The notes beneath the pieces are model-generated. The model saw nothing but the letters and a program-made list of their open reading frames with translations. It was not told where the DNA came from and made no database searches. Shown here piece after piece: positions 1-31,887 of a stretch of 64,000 nt of DNA. Position numbers and translations under genes: made by a program. This DNA is from Cystobasidiomycetes sp. EMM_F5 (lineage: Eukaryota), in contig JBPGPT010000027.1 in the NCBI GenBank assembly GCA_051047955.1, forward strand, positions 124,001 through 188,000. The letters are read 5' to 3'. How positions within the stretch are numbered: position 1 is the first letter of the stretch; each line of letters opens with the position of its first letter.

Positions 1-24
1 CATCAGCAAAGTAGATCTTCCAGT

Positions 25-17969: not shown

Positions 17970-18249
17970 TTGTATTCTAGTGGTATCGTGTAACAAGCAC
18001 GAAGAAACTGTGATGGAGTTGAGAACTCGCTGTGCCCATTGTCCAGCAATACGCCTTCATGATTTCCATCTGCACGAATCTGCAAATGGCCGGATGCCTC
18101 TTTCGCGGGCATATGCGCCGGGAATCTTGCTTTTAAACCATCTCAATATCTTCTTTACGCGTACTGGCTTTGAATTGTCCATTAGTCTGCCATTGGCGAC
18201 AGGCTGGCTATCCACGACATGATCTTTCAACGCCATCTTTATTGGGAAG

Positions 18250-19113
18250 ATGACAAGCCATACATATTCAAACTGGGCTCATTCAGATAACAAAATAATG
18301 GCAACGTCTCCACTAGTCGCAGTGGTCACTGGGAGCAGCCGTGGAATAGGGCAGGCTATCGTAGCGCTGCTCGCAAAGAGCCATACGCCGCTTCTTATAT
18401 ATGCGACGTCAAGAGAAGGCAGCGCTCTTGATATCCAGCCCGACAGCGGCAACGAGATCCGATATGCCAAATTGGACATCAGCGACGAGGCTTCCATCGA
18501 CAATCTCGCACAGAAGCTTGACCGCGTCGATATTCTCATCAACAATGCGGGAATCAATCTCGACGAGGATTACAATTACGAGAATGCGAAAAGGACATTT
18601 GACGTAAATTATTTTGGCACAAAGCGAGCTTGTCTCCGATTCATCCCCAAGATGCCTGCGAATGGGAAAAGTCGCATAGTCAACGTCACCTCTGGCGCTT
18701 GCCAACTCGGAAACTACGCTCCAGCAATCCAGACGAGATTCAGATCGTCGAGTATGACGATGTCGGAGCTCGACAATATGGCGACCGAGTTTCTGGATGT
18801 CGTCGAGCGTCACGACGAAAAACAAAGCGGTTGGTACCATGAGAAGGCATCGTACAGCGTCAGCAAGTCTTGCGTCACGGCTCTGACGGCGATTCTGGCT
18901 CGCGAGAATCCCGATATCCTGATAAACTGCTGCTGTCCAGGCTGGGTGCACACCGACATGGGTCAACAGGTAGGACAGGGAGGCAAGACGCCTCAAGAGG
19001 GCGCAAAGATACCAGTAAAGCTGGCCATTGGTGATATTGCCAACGTCACCGGCCGGTACTGGGCAAACGACGACAAGGAGAGCACAAACGACGGAAAAGT
19101 GCAGGATTGGTAG
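18250..19113 (+). CDS. Carbonyl reductase-like short-chain dehydrogenase (intronless; may start at 18298)
   Basis: VVTGSSRGIG, DILINNAG, YSVSK and CCPGWVHTDMG. Confidence 0.92.
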   Translation: MTSHTYSNWAHSDNKIMATSPLVAVVTGSSRGIGQAIVALLAKSHTPLLIYATSREGSALDIQPDSGNEIRYAKLDISDEASIDNLAQKLDRVDILINNAGINLDEDYNYENAKRTFDVNYFGTKRACLRFIPKMPANGKSRIVNVTSGACQLGNYAPAIQTRFRSSSMTMSELDNMATEFLDVVERHDEKQSGWYHEKASYSVSKSCVTALTAILARENPDILINCCCPGWVHTDMGQQVGQGGKTPQEGAKIPVKLAIGDIANVTGRYWANDDKESTNDGKVQDW

Positions 19114-20624: not shown

Positions 20625-21394
20625 CTACGGAGTCTGCCACAGAAGCGCGTCAGAGTATCAAAGGTAACGATGAGAGTACTGTGCTCACCGGCTTGATCTT
20701 GAAGTGCAACGAAATAAGGGAAAAGACAAACATCTGGTTGAGAAATAGGTGTTAGCCCAATGCAAGTACCTGAACAAGCAGCATAGCCCACCCGCAGATC
20801 TTGCACAAGATAGTAGAATACCCGCAATCCTTCTGGGTCATCACTTGACTGGACGTCCACCAGTGACCCGATTTTGGCAGTCTCAAAACTGATGTGCGTT
20901 TTCCCGACCCTGATTTCCAATTCCTGTTTGCCGACGACAGACTTTGTCGGCCAGTTTGTATCGTCCTCCCTGTTGTACATCACACGCAATTAGTTGCATA
21001 ATCCACAACAAGCCAAATCGTTTGCGGATTCCCCCTACTTGACCACTTCGGACTCTTCGATAATCCGCCTCAATTCGGCTACCGCGCTTGGACTCAACCA
21101 CACTGGAGGGAAGCATATTAGATTCGAGCAATAATGTACTTGCAGGCTGTATTGTTACTTGCTTTCTTTCCGGATTAGAGAGTCGCTTCGGTAGCTGTAT
21201 GCATGATTATTGAAGATCCAGAAATCAGCCCAACCGCTGCAATGCAGGGCAGCCAATGCTCCATGATCCATTACTGACTTTGAATTGTTGGCATATCTCA
21301 GTAAGCCGCCTTCAGAAAGCTCAAACTCGAGAAATTCATTTCCATAGCGCCCAACGTGTCCAGTGTAGTAGCGTAAGTAAAAGTCGTTTGCCAT
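20625..21394 (-). CDS. MAGOH: Mago nashi (exon junction complex core). Chimeric: codons 1-~19 are element-borne. The last exon end is approximate.
   Basis: [101 protein letters not shown]. Confidence 0.96.
21322..21339. repeat. att-like 18-bp direct repeat, left copy (caaactcgagaaattcat)
   Basis: Identical to 25995-26012; on the minus strand it encodes the Mago x-E-F-L-E-F segment. Confidence 0.92.
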
Positions 21395-21550
21395 GCTGCG
21401 AGTTGGTCGTAAAAGAAGAGCCGTGGTTCCAAGAAGCGATCGCATACGACAAATCTTCAGACAGGACATGGATGCAGGTAGCAATGGTATTAGCAGTGAA
21501 AGCTAGCAGAGTGACAACGTAGTAGTGCTATTGTCCAGCTTCCAGTTCTG

Positions 21551-21622
21551 TACGACCGCTAATACGACTGGTTACACGACCGGTTGCAGAAGCGGTTGCA
21601 TAAGCCGTTCCGTAAGGGGATT
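21551..21622. repeat. Degenerate 12-bp tandem array (6 units) near the element end
   Basis: tacgaccgctaa / tacgactggtta / cacgaccggttg / cagaagcggttg / cataagccgttc / cgtaaggggatt. Confidence 0.7.
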
Positions 21623-21719
21623 GAAAAGCAGTAGTGATTAGCTAACTCCATGAGTCATTATCATACCGCGATATGATTATAGTAATGATGGCTCGTTCAG
21701 CGACTTGGCGCCGCAATGT

Positions 21720-24700
21720 CTACTCTTCGTCATCGTTCTCCTCTTCGACCTCCCCTTCTTCTGAAGGAGCTGGTTCCTCCTCATCATCATAGCTGGCCGA
21801 TTTACCCGGCTTACGAACTTGACTCGACTTACGCGCGCCTTTCTGTTTGCTGGCTTTGACTGGTGCTTCCTTTGTCGAGCTCGTGCGATTGCTGACAAAT
21901 TTCAGCGTGCTGTCCTGACCGTCCCAATGACCCCAGGGATGCTGGCTGTCGCCGACCTTAGAGACACGAATGTGATGGTCATCTTCGACATGATGAGCCA
22001 GTGCCTCGCGAGATTTGAAAGGAGCAATAGTCGAGCAGCATGACGCTGGACAGGTTAAAACATCGTCTTTGGCAAAGTCGTATATGTGCTTGCTGACATG
22101 GATGCCAAGAATGTCTCGGGCGGAAAAGCTGGAAGTACAACATCAATCAGTCTGGCATCGGATTGTCTGCAATTGGACTCACGCTTGAGTGACATTTGAG
22201 GGGTCTTCCAACAAATTTGGACAGAAAGGACAAAATCCCGACCTGATAGTGCGGTGATTGTACTCGTGCACTGAATAGCCTTCGGGGTTTTGGAATTGCA
22301 CCAGTAAAGTGTCTTTGTGCTGCATATGGTGAGGCAGTCGTTCAGGAACAAGGATCCAGGCTTCGCATTCGACACAATACTCCCCCATGGAGCGAGCCTG
22401 TCGAATCGGTAGACTGTGATCGGCTTCTAGATGACGTAGCATCTCAGCCTTGTCGCCATACGTACGCGAGCACTCGTCGAACGGGCAACTGCTATAGTAA
22501 TCGTCCGTTTTCTTCATGTTGGTGGTGACATATTTGTAGAGGTGCTTGGCTAAATCACTAGGAGATAGGAGGATTGGATTGATTCGTTTGCCGTTTTTCT
22601 TCTGACAGGAGGCTTTGGGACAAGGGCGCGCAGGACCATCTTCGAGCTGCTGTATATACTCTTGAGCCAGATGCCTGCGTGTGCAATGATGGATGTGCAT
22701 TGCTCGTTCCACGATTCTGCCCGTCAATTTCTTGTCGCATCGAGGGCAAGCACCACCGTCCGTTGGTTCTTCACCCGGGAAGTAGGCGCTCACGCTCTTC
22801 AAAGATTCATCCTGAGACATGAGGGATACAAGCTTGACGGCCTGCTCCCGCGAGCTGATAGCTGTACCAAGAAGTCCCATGATCATCGAGACAACGTTCG
22901 GGATCTGCCCGCCAGAGGTCTGAACTCCTACTGCCGTCTGTCCATTAGCTGGCGTCTGCCACTAGATGCGTCATCAGCACCAGCACCTCAATACTCGAAG
23001 TATAGCTTACATCCTGACTGTTCTCAGGGTCTACGACCTGCTGCAATACGCTACGTCAGCGCGGAATTCAGCACAGGCGTAGCTATCGTACTCACTGCTT
23101 CTTGGTGTAGATCAGACGCGGGAGCTATGTCATCTTGTAAAAGCGAATCGATCTCCGCTCCAGCCATTGCGACTACCTGTTCTGCGTCCAGATTATTGTA
23201 GTCAATGCGCAAGACATCATCGGCGCCAAGGGTTGCAAAGTCCACTGGCAGGGACGCGCTGTCCGCTTCGAGAAGTAGTGGTAGATCAACTCCTGCAGTA
23301 TTTTGTTCGTTCGCCAAACCAGCTGCTCCATCATCTTGTTTTTCCTTCAAAGCGGCTGCGTCCTCTGTCACTTTGCTACGCTTAGTCGTGGTCTCGGTTC
23401 TGAATATATCCTTTTGTGCGTCCTCATAACTTGCTTTCACATGATTCGCCCACGCAGCTGCATACAGATCGGCCATCATCTTCGACCGCTTGTGCTTCAA
23501 GCGATAGAAGGCCTGTGCCTCCTCATCTCCACCCGTAGATGTTGTCTCAGCTGCTACTGCAGCTAGAATGGCTCCAACGTCTTTGTAGCGCAGAAGAAGG
23601 GCGGCTCGCAATACTTTGAGCTGCTGGTCTGCATCGACGATAGCGGGATCACGCAGTAATTCCAGCCGCTTCTGTGGGCTGAGTGCGAGTGGAGGCCCGG
23701 AGTATCGTAGATGGGTTTGCTTGTGAACGACGGCAACCACGCGCTCGCGCTCCTCTGCTGTGCCCATGTAATACGCGGCAATGTCTATGCCAACCAAGCC
23801 GGACTTATAGGCGTTGAATACCCGAGAGTGCTCGTGATGACCCATGGCTTGCCTTCGATTTGCCAGACTGACGTTGGCTTCGTCCAGCGCATTCGCAGCT
23901 CCTCGTCTGAGATCGTATGGCTTGACGCGGTTCAAAAATCCTGCGTACGCACTAACGGCCGCCAAACGACTAGAGAGAGAGGAATAATTCAGAGATTCCA
24001 CCCGAGAGGTGCCATACTCTGCCTCAACCTTCACGGTTCTGCGATAGACGTAAAGCTGCGTCCGCTCGGCACGCACGCGAAGCGCGATAGAGCTGTCCGA
24101 TCCAAACTGACTGCCACTGTCGAGCAAAGTCTGGACTGTGTCGAAGTCCTCAAAGATGCCGTCCGCTAGGGCTAGTGAGAGGAGAGGGAGGACTGGACAC
24201 ATGCTGGGTTTGCTGCGATTCATCAGAAGGGGCACTGATTTAAAGAAGTTGGCGTCGGTCCGATGTCCTTTCAAAAGACGGAAGGTTATGGCGACGTCGA
24301 CTGTAACCTCGCCGTCCGTAGTCTTTTTGGCTGTCCAATCGATGTCGCCCCATCGCAGAGCTTCTTCATCTTGCGTTGTGACTACTTCACCCGGCCTGCT
24401 GGCCGTAAAAGCCAGTACCTTGAATAATGAGTCCATCTGCACAATCTAAGTAGAGCATTAGCTAGCGTACGTAAAGGTCAAAGTGTATAGCATACTTCGC
24501 GCAGGCAGCGTGCTGGCTTGAGCCAGTTATAATGTAGGATGACTTGCAAAGATGCACCATCGGCAACAAACTTGGTCGTAGGTCGATTGATGAGACCGAA
24601 TTCGTCTTTCGCTTCAGTCAGAAGATACTGTAGTATTGCATCGTCAGTCTTGTGATACGGTGAATAGTATGACTTGTACGCACAGCCATGCTCTGATCAA

Positions 24701-25865
24701 CAACCATCTTCTCGACAGATATGCCAGTACGGCGTCTGTACGCCCCTATCAATGAAAGAATGTAGCCTCGAATGGTACCAATTGCTGGGCGATCTGATAT
24801 CCTGCCCACTTTGGCTGTGCACTGGTAAGCCACGTAACCTTTGAGATCCGCTATGACCGAAATTCAGAGAATCAGCTTCGAATAAAGTGAGCGCCAGCGT
24901 AATGTAGCTGACCTGCACTCATGCGATAGGTAGTCTGCCACCGAAAAGTAGCTTCGCTCTGTGCTGTCGATTCACCGAGAACTTCTGTACGGAATAGGTG
25001 CCAGACGGTCATAGCTCGCTCATGCATGCCTAAAGTAGCTTCAGTGATAGGCTTGAAATGGACGACATCCTGAATGCGTGACTGGCGTTCGGCTGCTTTT
25101 ACAGGAGTTTCGCTTCGCTGTCGTCGGGTTTCCTGCATCTTTACTGCGAGTGTGGGGCGCCAGTTCTTGCGTTTCTTTTGACCCTTGCTGGAAGCATCAG
25201 CCTGACTGATGTTGCTGTCGTGCCCACTAAAACTAGTCGACGCGTCGTCTTCAGTACTAGACCCTGCAAAAGATGGCGACATGTCGCGGCCAGTTTCAGA
25301 CGACACGCTCCGACTTGTTGAAGCTACCGCATTTTGTGTATTGTAGAGACTACTGTACGGAAGGGGCATTGGAGGCAAAGATGTATAGTTCCATGGCGCT
25401 GCTGTTGGCACCGCGGAAGTGCTTACTTGCGGATATGAAACAGCCGGAAGCACATATTGTGAATATTGATGCAATTGAACGGAATTTGAATACTGCTCGA
25501 AGGCAGGAGGAGGATAGTAGGCTGCATTTGCTGAATACTGCAAAGGATACGTAGGAGCAGCCCAAAGGGTGGGATTGAACGGCGTCTGCCATGCCAAATT
25601 GCTACCAGGGGCAGCTGGCCAGACTTGCGAAGGTGCACCCGTTTGTGCTACAACAGGCAGCCACGTGTAGCCTTGAGGATGTTGTGCCGGGTAGCTTGAC
25701 GCCTGAGCTGCGTAAGGCTGAGCTGTCGTCTATTCCACCACCAAGTCAGTCTACGAAGCGAAAGGCAGACGTGACGCTCACACTTACACCTCTTTCGAAG
25801 TCATTCACGTCGTCTGTACGCGCGTCGCGAGCAGCACGGTTGTGCTCTTCACCTGCCTTATCCAT
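21720..25865 (-). CDS. DUF3435 / Starship-captain-like tyrosine recombinase with C-terminal C2H2-like zinc fingers (8 exons, intact)
   Basis: AFTASRPGE (R), LLKGHR (K), CPVLPLLSLALADGIF, PYDLRRGAANAL (xxR) and QAMGH..SRVFNAY (H, Y). C-terminal CPFDEC..HLEADH, YCVECEAW and GFCPFC. Seven GT-AG introns join all exons in frame. Confidence 0.88.
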
Positions 25866-25994
25866 AGCTGTTCGCTGCCATCTGTGTCGTCGTTGAGGTA
25901 GAGCAACAAACAAGACCGTGTCAAAGAACAGCAATGACTGCAGTGGCAAAATAGGGGCTTGACTGTGACAGTATACAAAATTGACCGAAACAGG

Positions 25995-26012
25995 CAAACT
26001 CGAGAAATTCAT
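25995..26012. repeat. att-like 18-bp direct repeat, right copy
   Basis: caaactcgagaaattcat, identical to 21322-21339. Confidence 0.92.
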
Positions 26013-26141
26013 GGCCATATTTCCCTATTAGCATAGATAAATTGGACATGCATGAGTATTCCGCGAGCACAGCTAAAAGCTTCTTAGAGTACCTTGATGA
26101 CCGGTATAATATCGCAGGTAGAAATCTGAAGTTGACGACAT
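25995..26141 (-). pseudogene. MAGOH: Displaced original 5' end of host mago nashi (exon 26141-26093, intron 26092-26025, exon from 26024)
   Basis: Spliced, it reads [26 protein letters not shown]. Mago similarity stops exactly at the end of the 18-bp repeat. Confidence 0.9.
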
Positions 26142-26180
26142 GGTTGGCAGTTGACGGCTGTCCAAGAGGTGTTCGCGTGC

Positions 26181-27338
26181 ATGACTGACCTTGACGGTCG
26201 GCCAACATATGGCAACAACCTGATCTTCAAGGCAACTCTGATGAGCAATGACCCACGCAGACTCTTTGACAATGCATACTTGGTGGAGCCGGCAGAGGGC
26301 ACCCCGAGAACGTCAAAAGTGAATGAATATAGCCTCGCTGCATGACTTGACCTAGACATACCACTAATCTATAGACAGCTAATCCTGACATTTGGCTGGA
26401 TGAATGCGACGATCAAGTGGGATGATTCATCTCTCGCTGTGTTGCCGCGTCACGGCTTTCCTGAACTACGTATTCTAATGACAGGAGTCTTTCATGGGTG
26501 CTTGCCAAATACAAGTCTATGCTACCTGGCTCTACGCTTCTTCTAATCACTTCCGATATCTGTACGCGTACTCGTACGTTGCAGTGTAAACATATCAATC
26601 TAATACTATACTGTCAAAAGGGACCTACGCAAAAACTACATCAGCCTTACAGAAGCCATTGTTGCCCGTAGCGCAGTGGCTTGAAGTGCACCGCTTCGAG
26701 ACTATACACGCGCACGTCTTTTCAAACGGAGGAGCATGGCAACTCGTCTTGCTCTCGCAATTGCTACACAAGCGATGTAGTGAGCTAGGCAAGGGAGTCG
26801 TGTGGGAACGCACACACCCGCTACCGATATCTACATTAGTGCTCGACTCGGCCCCTGGCAGCAACACAGCGTCAGAAGGCATCGGCGTATCCGGAGCCAC
26901 GTGGAGAAAGCAAAGCCTGCCCATTCGATACAGCCTGAACTTTGCGGCAGCTATCCTAGGCGCATCGTCAACACTGTACAACAAACTGCCACTGCTTCCA
27001 CGCACCGGCAATATACTGCTTTCGGAGCTACTAAACGATCCGGGCATAATAGATCCAGATGCCAAACGGCTGTACATCTACAGCAAACAGGATAGCATCG
27101 TCAACTGGCGCGCCGTGGAGCGCAACGCTCAGATTGCGCGCAAGCTGGGTCGAAGCGTCCGCGTAGAGCGCTTTGAAGGTTCATCGCACGTTGCGCACGC
27201 AAAGAAGGACAGCGAACGGTAAGTAGATGTCCATTTGATGAAGGTGCAGAACATGCTGAGCGTGTGTGCCTCATTTGCAGGTACTGGACATCAGTACAGG
27301 CATTGATGAGATTGGTCGCGAGGGAATCTCGTTTATGA
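26181..27338 (+). CDS. DUF829/TMEM53-like alpha/beta-fold protein (start 26181 or 26241)
   Basis: LILTFGWMNA, HVFSNGG, LVLDSAPG, RLYIYSKQDSIV and FEGSSHVAH; ends ...ESRL. Confidence 0.85.
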
Positions 27339-29180: not shown

Positions 29181-31887
29181 ATGATCTTCTGGCCGCCTTC
29201 TTCAGCCATTGCGGTGGTTGCGATTGCTGCAGGCGTCTTCCGCTCAGTCTCAGCGGATGCGCCAGCCGCAAATGATGTTTGCGGTAATGCTCTGGTTTCG
29301 CTGGGCCAACAGGCCGCACTGCAGTACTGCCAGTCTCTCGTTGCGCCATTACCCACAGCAGTCAGTCGGCTCATGCAGATTACAAGGCAATCACTGATGC
29401 TCACACACATTGAGCAGACCGTTACTGTTACTTCCACATCAACGTCCATAAATCGCAACGGGATCAGGTACGACCGACGTTGTCTACCGCGCCCCTATGT
29501 GACTCACAAATTCCACACGACTGCAGGACAACCGTCTCCAATCCGGCCGCGGTCAGGTATTTGAATGTTGCCTTTTGTCACGCCAAACAACTGACACGCG
29601 TCCCGTTGCGCCCAGGATAATTACTTCGGTTGTTACAGAGCCGCCCTCGTATGCTGCTGCCTACTAAACACACGTTTTGTTCCGTCAACGCTGACATCTA
29701 TTTATTCACGATACGCAGGAGCACAAGCACTTCAGTCTCTATTGTGTCTTCTGATACTACTACCACCGATCTCTCATCTACGATTGTATCAACAACACGC
29801 GTTATCAGCCAAATTTCGACTTTTACATCTATAGCTGCTACCGCAACAAGAAATGACATAACTACCACGACAATGACTGTCGCGGCAAATGCCGCCAGCT
29901 CAACGACCTCGTCATCTTCGTCTACCACCACTACCTCGGATATGGTTCGTCGTAGCTTGGCCGCTCGACAACCTGCCGGGAACATGTTCGTCCCGTCTTT
30001 CCGTCCATTCACGTCTTCATCGTCATCTACATCTACATCTTCGTCGTCATCTTCGTCGTCGTCATCGTCGTCATCATCGTCGTCGTCGTCTTCTTCATCA
30101 TCATCTTCGTCCTCGGTATCCACGTCAACCTCGTCTGCCTCGATAAGTCCGTCTTCCTCGACTGGGTCCATGTCCCGCAACGCATTCCTACCGACGAGAA
30201 TGTTGTCCACGTCCCGGTCTAGCTCCACCACTTCAGCCAGCTCTACAAGCTTCAGTTCCATTCCTTGTGATCTTGCAGCGCTGAGCTCCGCTTGCAGTCA
30301 GTTTATCTTCGTCCAGTCGACCGCTACGGCAACGCAGGTCATTGGAGAAGTCGTTGCCAGCCCGTCGACTACTTCCACGTACAGAATTCTACAGCCCGCT
30401 TCATTTACGTGAGTCGTTGTGCATATCCTTGCCTTGCCATGCCATGCCTTGTCAACTCTGACTGAGTGGAAAAATAATTTTCGGGATTGACGGTATTATC
30501 GCAGCACGACTACGACCTCCACGATGCCCGTGTCAGTGGCTGTCCAGCCAACAACAACCACAACGGTCAACACTCACACAGCAAGCTCGACTTCCACAAG
30601 CATAAGCACTACCTTTACCACTACTAGCGGCTCGACTACTGTTCCTGGTACGACTACCACAACGGTCTACACTGCAACTGCAACGGTATGTCTATTGCGC
30701 TACTCAATGCGTGTTTAATACTGACAATTGCCTCAAGCGGGTTGTGTACACTGCTGTCCCCTCGACTTGCGTGACAAGCGGAACGACTTTATGGTCAAAT
30801 AGTACGGGCGGCGTTGACGATGATACCAGGACTATTGCCCTGCCTTTCAATGTGACAATCTTCAACGCGACAAGCAGTTCCCTTTGCGTCACCTCGAACG
30901 GCGTAAGTGCTTGTCCGCAGATGGCAGATCTCGTTTGGACTGATGGAATTCTCAATGTGATACAGATTGCGGCCATAGGTGCATGCAGGTCTGATTTCAC
31001 TGAGCAGCCGTTGCCGTATCAATACTTTGGTAGATTTGTCTTCATTTGTCTTTTTGGATATCTGCTGAACACCCACGAACAGGGGCTGCCATTTTCATGT
31101 TCTGGTGAACTTTTCTGTAACAGGTGAACAAGACGTTTCGTGCTGATGACTATTCTTCCTTGGGTCGAAGGGATGATCTATGGGTGTCTGGTGGTGCGTG
31201 ATATGATCGCCGCTTCATTCCAACGCTGGCTGATGCCGTCTACGTTTTCCAGGGCAAGCCGGCGCGGGCCAAATGTACGTGGACTGCCGATTTAATCAGG
31301 GAGTCACTGAAATATATCGTTTTGCAGCATCCAATACCGTGTTCTGGGCAATTCTCTGGTTGTAAGCTCGTGATGGAAGAAGACCCTGCCAAACGCTGAC
31401 TGGAGGTTACTCTACAGATCGAGTACCTCGTTACCCACTACCAGGTAGAGACAGCTCCAGCGCCGAAAGAGTTTGTTTGACTTGACTTTCGTTCCTCAAC
31501 TACCTAGGCTCTAGGAGAGTATTATCATCTGACTCTTGCTTATACGACGGACAATCCGGGTATTTGGGTTGGAAAATACTACCAGGTACGTTGAAGCGAT
31601 CAGGACGCCCGGACGTAACTTACTTATAGCATGAACAGGTCAGCGATTTTGGTAACAGCGCATGCGTTGGTCAACAATCTTGTGGGTCCAGCGTTAATGG
31701 CTATGGTATAATCACGGCTTATACCTAATCTTTCCTTACAGCTGGCTTGAGCACGGCGGCCACAACAACTTTCTCTTTTGATCGACCTAATATTCAACCA
31801 GGCATGGTTCTTACCTTCAACACGACCGCCAATACAATCACATCGAGCGGCTTCGACGCAACGTGTGGCAGCGATTACTTCCATTGA
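29181..31887 (+). CDS. Secreted Ser/Thr-rich (mucin-like) protein with a C-terminal globular domain; many small exons
   Basis: Hydrophobic signal peptide, Cys-containing N-terminus, long S/T stalk, then VDDDTRTIALPFNVTIF..LCVTSNG. Confidence 0.7.
30013..30113 (+). repeat. Imperfect TCN trinucleotide tract encoding poly-Ser
   Basis: Run of tcg/tca/tct codons inside the secreted-protein ORF. Confidence 0.85.

Follow-up and report, generated by a model that had tools for sequence, protein, structure and literature searches.

A 4.67-kb element with a DUF3435 tyrosine recombinase gene, probably integrated site-specifically into a fungal Mago nashi gene whose 5' end it appears to replace

The 64,000-nt stretch of Cystobasidiomycetes sp. 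EMM_F5 analysed here (GCA_051047955.1, contig JBPGPT010000027.1, positions 124,001 to 188,000 of the forward strand; hereafter the window, numbered from its first base) contains a gene that a first-pass annotation, made from the sequence alone, had described as a Starship-captain-like recombinase in a minimal element. The best explanation, to which we give a probability of about 0.78, is a site-specific integrative element of 4.67 kb that carries a single DUF3435 recombinase gene and entered the Mago nashi gene of its host by recombination within the first coding exon. In doing so, the element would have replaced the 5' end and the promoter of its own target gene. The features concerned are listed below from the higher to the lower coordinates.

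25995..26141, minus strand: displaced 5' end of the host Mago nashi gene (ATG at 26141; exon 26141-26093; GT-AG intron 26092-26025, 68 nt; exon 26024-25995, ending in the core)
25995..26012, minus strand: left (attL) copy of the core, 18/18 identical to the right copy
25866..25994, minus strand: non-coding left end of the element (129 bp, between the core and the recombinase ATG)
21720..25865, minus strand: tyrosine recombinase ('captain') gene (8 exons; spliced coding sequence of 3762 nt; 1253 amino acids)
21395..21719, minus strand: spacer of 325 bp, from the recombinase stop to the element-borne Mago ATG
21340..21394, minus strand: element-borne Mago nashi start (ATG at 21394; codons 1-18 before the core, 24 codons with the core; intron-less)
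21322..21339, minus strand: right (attR) copy of the core, 18/18 identical to the left copy
20650..21321, minus strand: rest of the host Mago nashi gene, in frame with the element-borne start (exon bounds 21279, 21194-21163, 21102-21039, 20969-20792 and 20733-)

The two core copies belong to the longest direct-repeat family found between 19000 and 28500 (D1; 25 nt, of which the first 18 bases are identical) and are spaced 4673 bp apart. Read on the gene strand, the core is ATGAATTTCTCGAGTTTG and spans the codons for EFLEF of Mago nashi, inside the N-terminal conserved block of the protein; in alignment, EFLEFE is identical in human MAGOH, MAGOHB and a distant Mago protein of the PDB. Besides the recombinase gene, the element holds only the 325-bp spacer and the 24 Mago codons. 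The first-pass annotation had placed the captain first, about 130 bp from the boundary of an element of less than 5 kb with a repair fragment as its only cargo, and each of these points agrees with the mapped layout: 129 bp separate the left core from the recombinase ATG, and the Mago 5' fragment is the sole other content. Apart from the core, the left and right ends share no k-mer of 8 or more, and neither terminal inverted repeats nor common subterminal motifs were found between them. Base composition, GC content at third codon positions (GC3) and dinucleotide indices of the element equal those of its flanks, and it bears no signature of repeat-induced point mutation, a fungal process. No second copy of the element occurs within the window, and an Rfam scan of the window gave no match; a scan for bacterial promoters and terminators, of a type unsuited to a eukaryote, returned nothing.

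Two Mago nashi starts thus stand around the recombinase gene. The upstream one retains 26 codons with ATG, frame and splice sites, lies within an open reading frame (ORF) at 25921..26226, and then runs into the element as far as a stop at 25920-25918. The downstream one, directly joined to the gene body, matches the Pfam Mago_nashi profile (PF02792) at positions 1-36 with E = 1.4e-14 and was aligned to human MAGOH. From this start the restored gene follows a five-exon model that stays open for 157 codons without a stop, the 3' end of the model being uncertain. Its fourth exon is covered by an ORF matching Mago_nashi positions 67-127 (E = 1.3e-26). Mago proteins of the PDB are matched at E = 6e-22. 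The second intron (21103-21162, minus strand) is of the GC-AG type with donor GCAAGT, since every GT donor tried breaks the frame; with the GC donor, the next conserved block lies at the same distance as in human MAGOH.

Compared at the DNA level, the two starts agree at 28/46 positions before the core, at 18/18 in it and at 6/30 after it. Before the core, 13 of the 16 codons differ, mostly at third positions, and the N-termini are different; the host start carries the 68-nt intron and the element-borne start has none. This step in the identity profile, together with an intron present in one copy, points to site-specific recombination between attP and attB rather than to a local duplication. 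To judge by these sequences, the start now joined to the gene body is the copy of the element, and the upstream start is the displaced copy of the host.

The recombinase gene was modelled on the minus strand with the following exons and protein regions.

25865-25788, 25729-24913, 24850-24684, 24627-24496, 24445-23096, 23040-23011, 22961-22183 and 22128-21720, minus strand: recombinase exons 1 to 8, from the spliced translation
Amino acids 27 to ~230: Q/P/Y/S-rich N-terminus
Amino acids ~243-398: core-binding-like region
Exon 5, 24445-23096, minus strand: catalytic domain, 450 amino acids
Exons 7-8, minus strand: C-terminus, Cys/His-rich and zinc-finger-like, with an acidic tail

The gene begins with an ATG at 25865 and ends with a TAG at 21722-21720. 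As the first-pass annotation had held, with exact coordinates, its eight exons splice in frame: the seven introns (49-62 nt) are all GT-AG, donor GTAAGT gives the in-frame model, and the spliced frame of 3762 nt has no internal stop. The stop-to-stop open pieces across the gene are 24872-25729, 23051-24445, 22179-22961 and 21720-22142. That the model is more than an open frame follows from homologues which align continuously over its exon junctions: P0003, a relative of 1593 amino acids, aligns unbroken to residues 243-1060 over five junctions, and the C-terminus of P0004 aligns to residues 829-1236. The long Q/P/Y/S-rich N-terminal extension that had been described is present in the model, but exon 1 and the first ~230 residues have no homologue support except for a compositionally similar stretch of P0003, and the start codon is for this reason the least certain part of the model.

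The protein is a divergent DUF3435 (Starship-captain-type) tyrosine recombinase. Exon 5 scores 115.3 bits with the Pfam model PF11917, whose cut-off is 25.8 (E = 4.4e-33; profile positions 26-313 of 418); with the generic Phage_integrase model the E-value is no better than 0.015. As to the comparison with Crypton-type profiles that the first-pass annotation had proposed, Pfam, run on exons 5, 7 and 8 with E up to 0.1, listed no match to GCR1_C, NDC10_II or DUF3504. The catalytic positions recognised in that annotation (R, K, xxR, H and Y) correspond to R17, K59, R180, R181, H203 and Y213, in exon-5 numbering (whole-protein positions are higher by 398), and all are invariant in 14 aligned sequences, i.e. 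the window protein and 13 relatives; the block noted as CPV..LALADG.F reads CPV..LALADGIF.

Structure prediction for exon 5, another check that had been suggested, returned a tyrosine recombinase fold. The predicted local distance difference test score (pLDDT) of the AlphaFold model averages 68 and exceeds 80 for most of the first 160 residues. Superposition on Cre/Tre with VIA-align gave Z = 15.5-14 at a root-mean-square deviation (rmsd) of 2.5-3.9 over 160-170 residues, the highest value (Z = 15.5) being obtained at an rmsd of 3.9 over 170 residues; Z was 14.3 for XerA, 13.5 for XerH, 12.9 for IntI and 11.6 for lambda Int. The residue-by-residue pairing with Cre was deduced from spacing and not taken from the alignment. 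XerA, Cre, IntI and XerH also took the top ranks in Foldseek, weakly (E = 7e-3 and up).

Towards the C-terminus, exons 7-8 contain several C-x2-4-C...H-x3-5-H motifs, and many of the Cys and His residues are invariant or nearly so in 17 aligned sequences. The model of exon 7 (pLDDT 66) retrieves mostly arrays of C2H2 zinc fingers, namely those of CTCF, ZFP568, YY1, WT1 and TFIIIA, with Foldseek E-values of 0.03 or worse. Of the zinc-finger-like motifs claimed by the first-pass annotation, the conservation of Cys and His therefore stands and the fold matches remain poor, so that 'zinc-finger-like' appears a reasonable, weakly supported label.

To find relatives of the recombinase, 1.84 billion representative proteins were scanned in full with HMMER, and 250 of them matched at E = 1e-3 or better. 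Only two reached E = 1e-30 or better: the window protein itself (P0001) and P0002, which has 43% identity, begins at the same point as exon 5 and extends into a shared C-terminal 'YPGEEPT..CP.C' block. Among the remaining relatives the strongest has ~31% identity, and none of the matches listed exceeds 41%. The 23 relatives scanned with Pfam all belong to DUF3435; P0007 among them reaches 340 bits against the 115 of the window protein, which is accordingly regarded as a divergent member. In a quick, unlabelled maximum-likelihood tree of 139 DUF3435 catalytic cores, the window protein and P0002 form a pair on a long stem (support 100; stem 0.62) that sits in an unresolved group and is nested in no well-supported subclade, and a Pyrenophora DUF3435 protein falls in the other half of the tree. 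Besides the window's own protein, a word-indexed protein search at near lengths retrieved nothing but a single DUF3435 protein of Pyrenophora (29%), and the same search at longer lengths found no relative. In a protein atlas, the clusters nearest to the recombinase are oomycete hypothetical proteins, NDC10_II and a generic tyrosine recombinase at 0.90-0.92, with a DUF3435 cluster at 0.88; these values serve as leads only.

Many long DUF3435 proteins (P0003, P0004, P0005, P0010-P0014 and others) match the architecture of the window protein, with a core-binding-like N-terminal region and a Cys/His-rich C-terminal module. The Cys/His motif [YF]PxExP..CPxC, which opens this module, was found in 18 of 151 scanned proteins (150 HMMER matches and P0151), and the module seems to be an old and little-described part of captain proteins. 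Two loci from a metagenome scan (L001 and L002) were dropped, as their similarity was confined to one short segment close to the first catalytic Arg, they did not match the family profile and they had no Mago. Pattern scans on the 'LRWGDIDW' block gave 14 further loci (L003-L016; 12 on genome contigs, 2 on viral contigs), which match only briefly, mostly over 30-50 residues, where the catalytic domain begins (query residues 1-108). The 12 genome loci are metagenome-assembled genome records with bacterial titles and the viral ones are IMG/VR contigs; all 14 were dropped as well and are taken to be ordinary tyrosine integrases sharing the motif that follows the first catalytic Arg.

The same arrangement might in principle have arisen in other ways. 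If the 5' region of Mago had been duplicated locally, and a Crypton-like transposon of unrelated origin had happened to land between the copies, this would explain the presence of two Mago starts in direct orientation around a recombinase gene and would leave the 'repair fragment' outside the element; yet a recent duplicate should be nearly identical and keep the intron, whereas these copies agree at 28/46 positions, differ in 13 of 16 codons and in their N-termini, and share no intron. Moreover, the identity rises to 18/18 exactly at the junctions and falls to 6/30 beyond them, which is the signature of an att core, and we consider a duplication highly improbable. It is hardly credible that the assembly is chimeric here, with two haplotypes or organisms fused at a conserved 18-mer common to both: conserved k-mers can indeed produce misjoins, but a misjoin creates one junction and not a 4.67-kb insert between two copies of the k-mer, the host genes are collinear on both sides (GET4 and Mago on one, DUF829 on the other), and the composition is uniform. 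A fixed, domesticated or dead insertion, which entered Mago once in a site-specific manner and no longer moves, its recombinase decaying or recruited by the host, is unlikely. The window scan shows a single copy, base composition and GC3 are indistinguishable from those of host genes, and the protein has long disordered, low-complexity parts. On the other side stand the intact 3762-nt frame with seven canonical introns and every catalytic residue kept, the 18/18 identity of the cores, and a displaced 26-codon host fragment that still has its ATG, frame and splice sites, none of which is proof of activity.

Several points weigh against a mobile, site-specific element. Only one copy was seen, so that both mobility and target specificity rest on a single locus; the roles given to the promoters are pure inference; and the zinc-finger label draws on weak matches, with E = 0.03 or worse in both Foldseek and Pfam. 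In addition, a frame of ~50 codons starting at the displaced Mago ATG ends 53 nt before the recombinase ATG, and this upstream frame would hamper translation of the recombinase from a transcript that reads through.

If the element is indeed site-specific and mobile, it would move as a circle whose joined ends form attP, made up of the element's Mago start, the core and the recombinase side, and the recombinase would exchange strands within the core common to attP and the host attB. Recombination of a circle with its target has been proposed for Cryptons, where it explains the short direct repeats (PMC3212892), and a circular Starship intermediate has been reported (bioRxiv 10.64898/2026.09.21.753150). 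Integration would swap the host Mago promoter and first 24 codons for the element's own, and because the element supplies both, the important single-copy Mago gene would stay functional and the cost to the host would be low. Recognition of the core, which is unusually long, may be aided by the Cys/His array at the C-terminus. In the integrated state the host Mago promoter would point at the recombinase, and in the circle the element's Mago promoter would do so; the recombinase might thus borrow a Mago promoter in both states, which could be why just 129 bp precede its ATG. The 325-bp spacer would have to hold both the 3' end of the recombinase gene and the promoter that presently drives Mago.

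Taken in full, this scheme is put forward tentatively: the element might be the first seen member of a minimal captain-type lineage that homes to the EFLEFE-coding block of Mago, brings its own promoter and first exon, is possibly guided by zinc fingers and has its recombinase driven by a Mago promoter in both states. Within the spacer, at 21581-21616 (minus strand), a 12-nt unit is repeated about 2.4 times (21581-21609) and is followed by three GGTCGT/AGTCGT motifs; they may represent elements of a promoter or sites bound by the recombinase.

Bacterial and archaeal prophages, genomic islands and integrative and conjugative elements integrate into transfer RNA (tRNA) or protein-coding genes and restore them, and in function this behaviour is the nearest parallel to the window element. 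Their hallmarks are identical cores at the junctions, a diverged gene end borne by the element, an intact target and a tyrosine recombinase adjacent to one end, and the window element has all of these; in particular, its core is accompanied by a diverged gene end (18/18, 28/46 and 6/30) and a frame of 157 amino acids. It differs in that bacterial elements more usually replace the 3' end of their target, whereas here the 5' end and the promoter appear to be replaced, in an intron-bearing eukaryote. Furthermore, no excisionase-like gene is visible, and the N-terminus of the recombinase is long and disordered, its C-terminus zinc-finger-like.

With Starships, the element shares the Pfam family (above the curated cut-off), a captain that stands first at the 5' end and points inward, and boundaries formed by target-matching direct repeats with no obligatory terminal inverted repeats. 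The direct repeats of Starships reflect the core of the target and are longest, at 6-16 bp, in the families that target 5S ribosomal DNA (rDNA); these families insert internally, with disruption of the 5S copy as the presumed outcome (PMC11162782). Starships are, however, tens to hundreds of kb long, against 4.67 kb here, and none of their accessory genes (DUF3723, FRE, PLP and NLR) is present in the window element; while the 5S families hit multicopy rDNA, the window element hits a single-copy protein-coding gene and replaces the lost end. The premise of the first-pass annotation that Starships belong to filamentous ascomycetes is out of date, as they have been reported in the basidiomycete Tremella fuciformis, at 42-606 kb (PMC13066641).

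In size and content the element resembles CryptonF, which is likewise small, consists of a single intron-containing tyrosine recombinase gene and lacks terminal inverted repeats (PMC3212892). The CryptonF elements of fungi and oomycetes, however, have a GCR1_C domain and repeats of 6 bp (PMC3212892), as opposed to DUF3435 and an 18-bp core inside a gene, three times that length and also outside the 4-6 bp expected of such elements. Phaeoviruses are described as using 2-5 bp of homology, and eukaryotic attachment sites have been termed 'relatively simple' (PMC13236599). Dada, a eukaryotic DNA transposon, is as strictly specific for a conserved gene sequence as the window element appears to be, but it has a DDE-type transposase and multicopy targets, namely tRNA and small nuclear RNA genes, and relies on their copy number (PMC3706591). 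Target repair by Dada was not borne out by that paper, and the string 'restor' does not occur in its text (PMC3706591).

Eukaryotic tyrosine-recombinase elements such as Cryptons, Starships and phaeoviruses are described as needing only a few bases of homology, and those that are site-specific, for instance to 5S rDNA, as breaking a multicopy target (PMC11162782; PMC13236599). Searches of the literature, in which subscription journals were thinly covered, brought up no tyrosine-recombinase element of a eukaryote that repairs a protein-coding target, and absence is unproven. Should the proposed reading be true, the bacterial strategy of a 'safe harbour with repair' would have evolved in eukaryotes too, at a single-copy, conserved protein-coding gene, and small, Crypton-sized elements would be linked to the Starship recombinase family. 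It would also amount to a natural promoter replacement at a gene of the exon-junction complex, and to a eukaryotic counterpart of the bacterial gene-targeting integrases with an EFLEFE-coding target present in almost every eukaryote. In practical terms, a recombinase that is native to eukaryotes and whose 18-bp target occurs in most of their genomes would be a candidate for use in site-specific integration.

The window is otherwise an ordinary piece of eukaryotic chromosome, with genes mostly split into several short exons. They include genes for a protein kinase, ALG11, fibrillarin, an IP5 2-kinase, a patatin-type lipase, a short-chain dehydrogenase, GET4 and Mago, as well as DUF829, MGMT, Arf, TGS1, CPSF100, Rrn7 and a MutS homologue. 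The host had been called a probable basidiomycete, to be checked on the flanking genes. For the fibrillarin exon, the match to human gives 214 bits, that to S. cerevisiae 207 and that to Chaetomium 197, and the GET4 exon has only 41 bits against Chaetomium; these scores and the many short exons argue against Pezizomycotina. The evidence as a whole is mixed: Basidiomycota is judged about as likely as not, Pezizomycotina less likely, and another fungus outside Pezizomycotina less likely still. In the protein atlas, the cluster nearest to the CPSF100 exon, at 0.87, has Ascomycota as its commonest taxon, a result too coarse for taxonomy. The dehydrogenase, described below, stands on the other side, the fungal names among its relatives being all from Pezizomycotina.

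Between 29000 and 31000 the GC skew is strongly negative in two successive 1-kb windows (-0.21 and -0.18); an ORF of 263 amino acids in this region (29621-30412, plus strand) has no Pfam match. Among the many-exon genes, the short-chain dehydrogenase ('carbonyl reductase 1'-like; 18223-19113, plus strand) is intron-less. Among its 120 listed relatives, every fungal name is from Pezizomycotina, with identities of at most 50% and with many lichen-forming Lecanoromycetes; no basidiomycete is included, one row is labelled Quercus suber, and unnamed metagenomic relatives reach 59-69%. This pattern of relatives could reflect horizontal transfer, or could be a hint on the ecology or taxonomy of the host.

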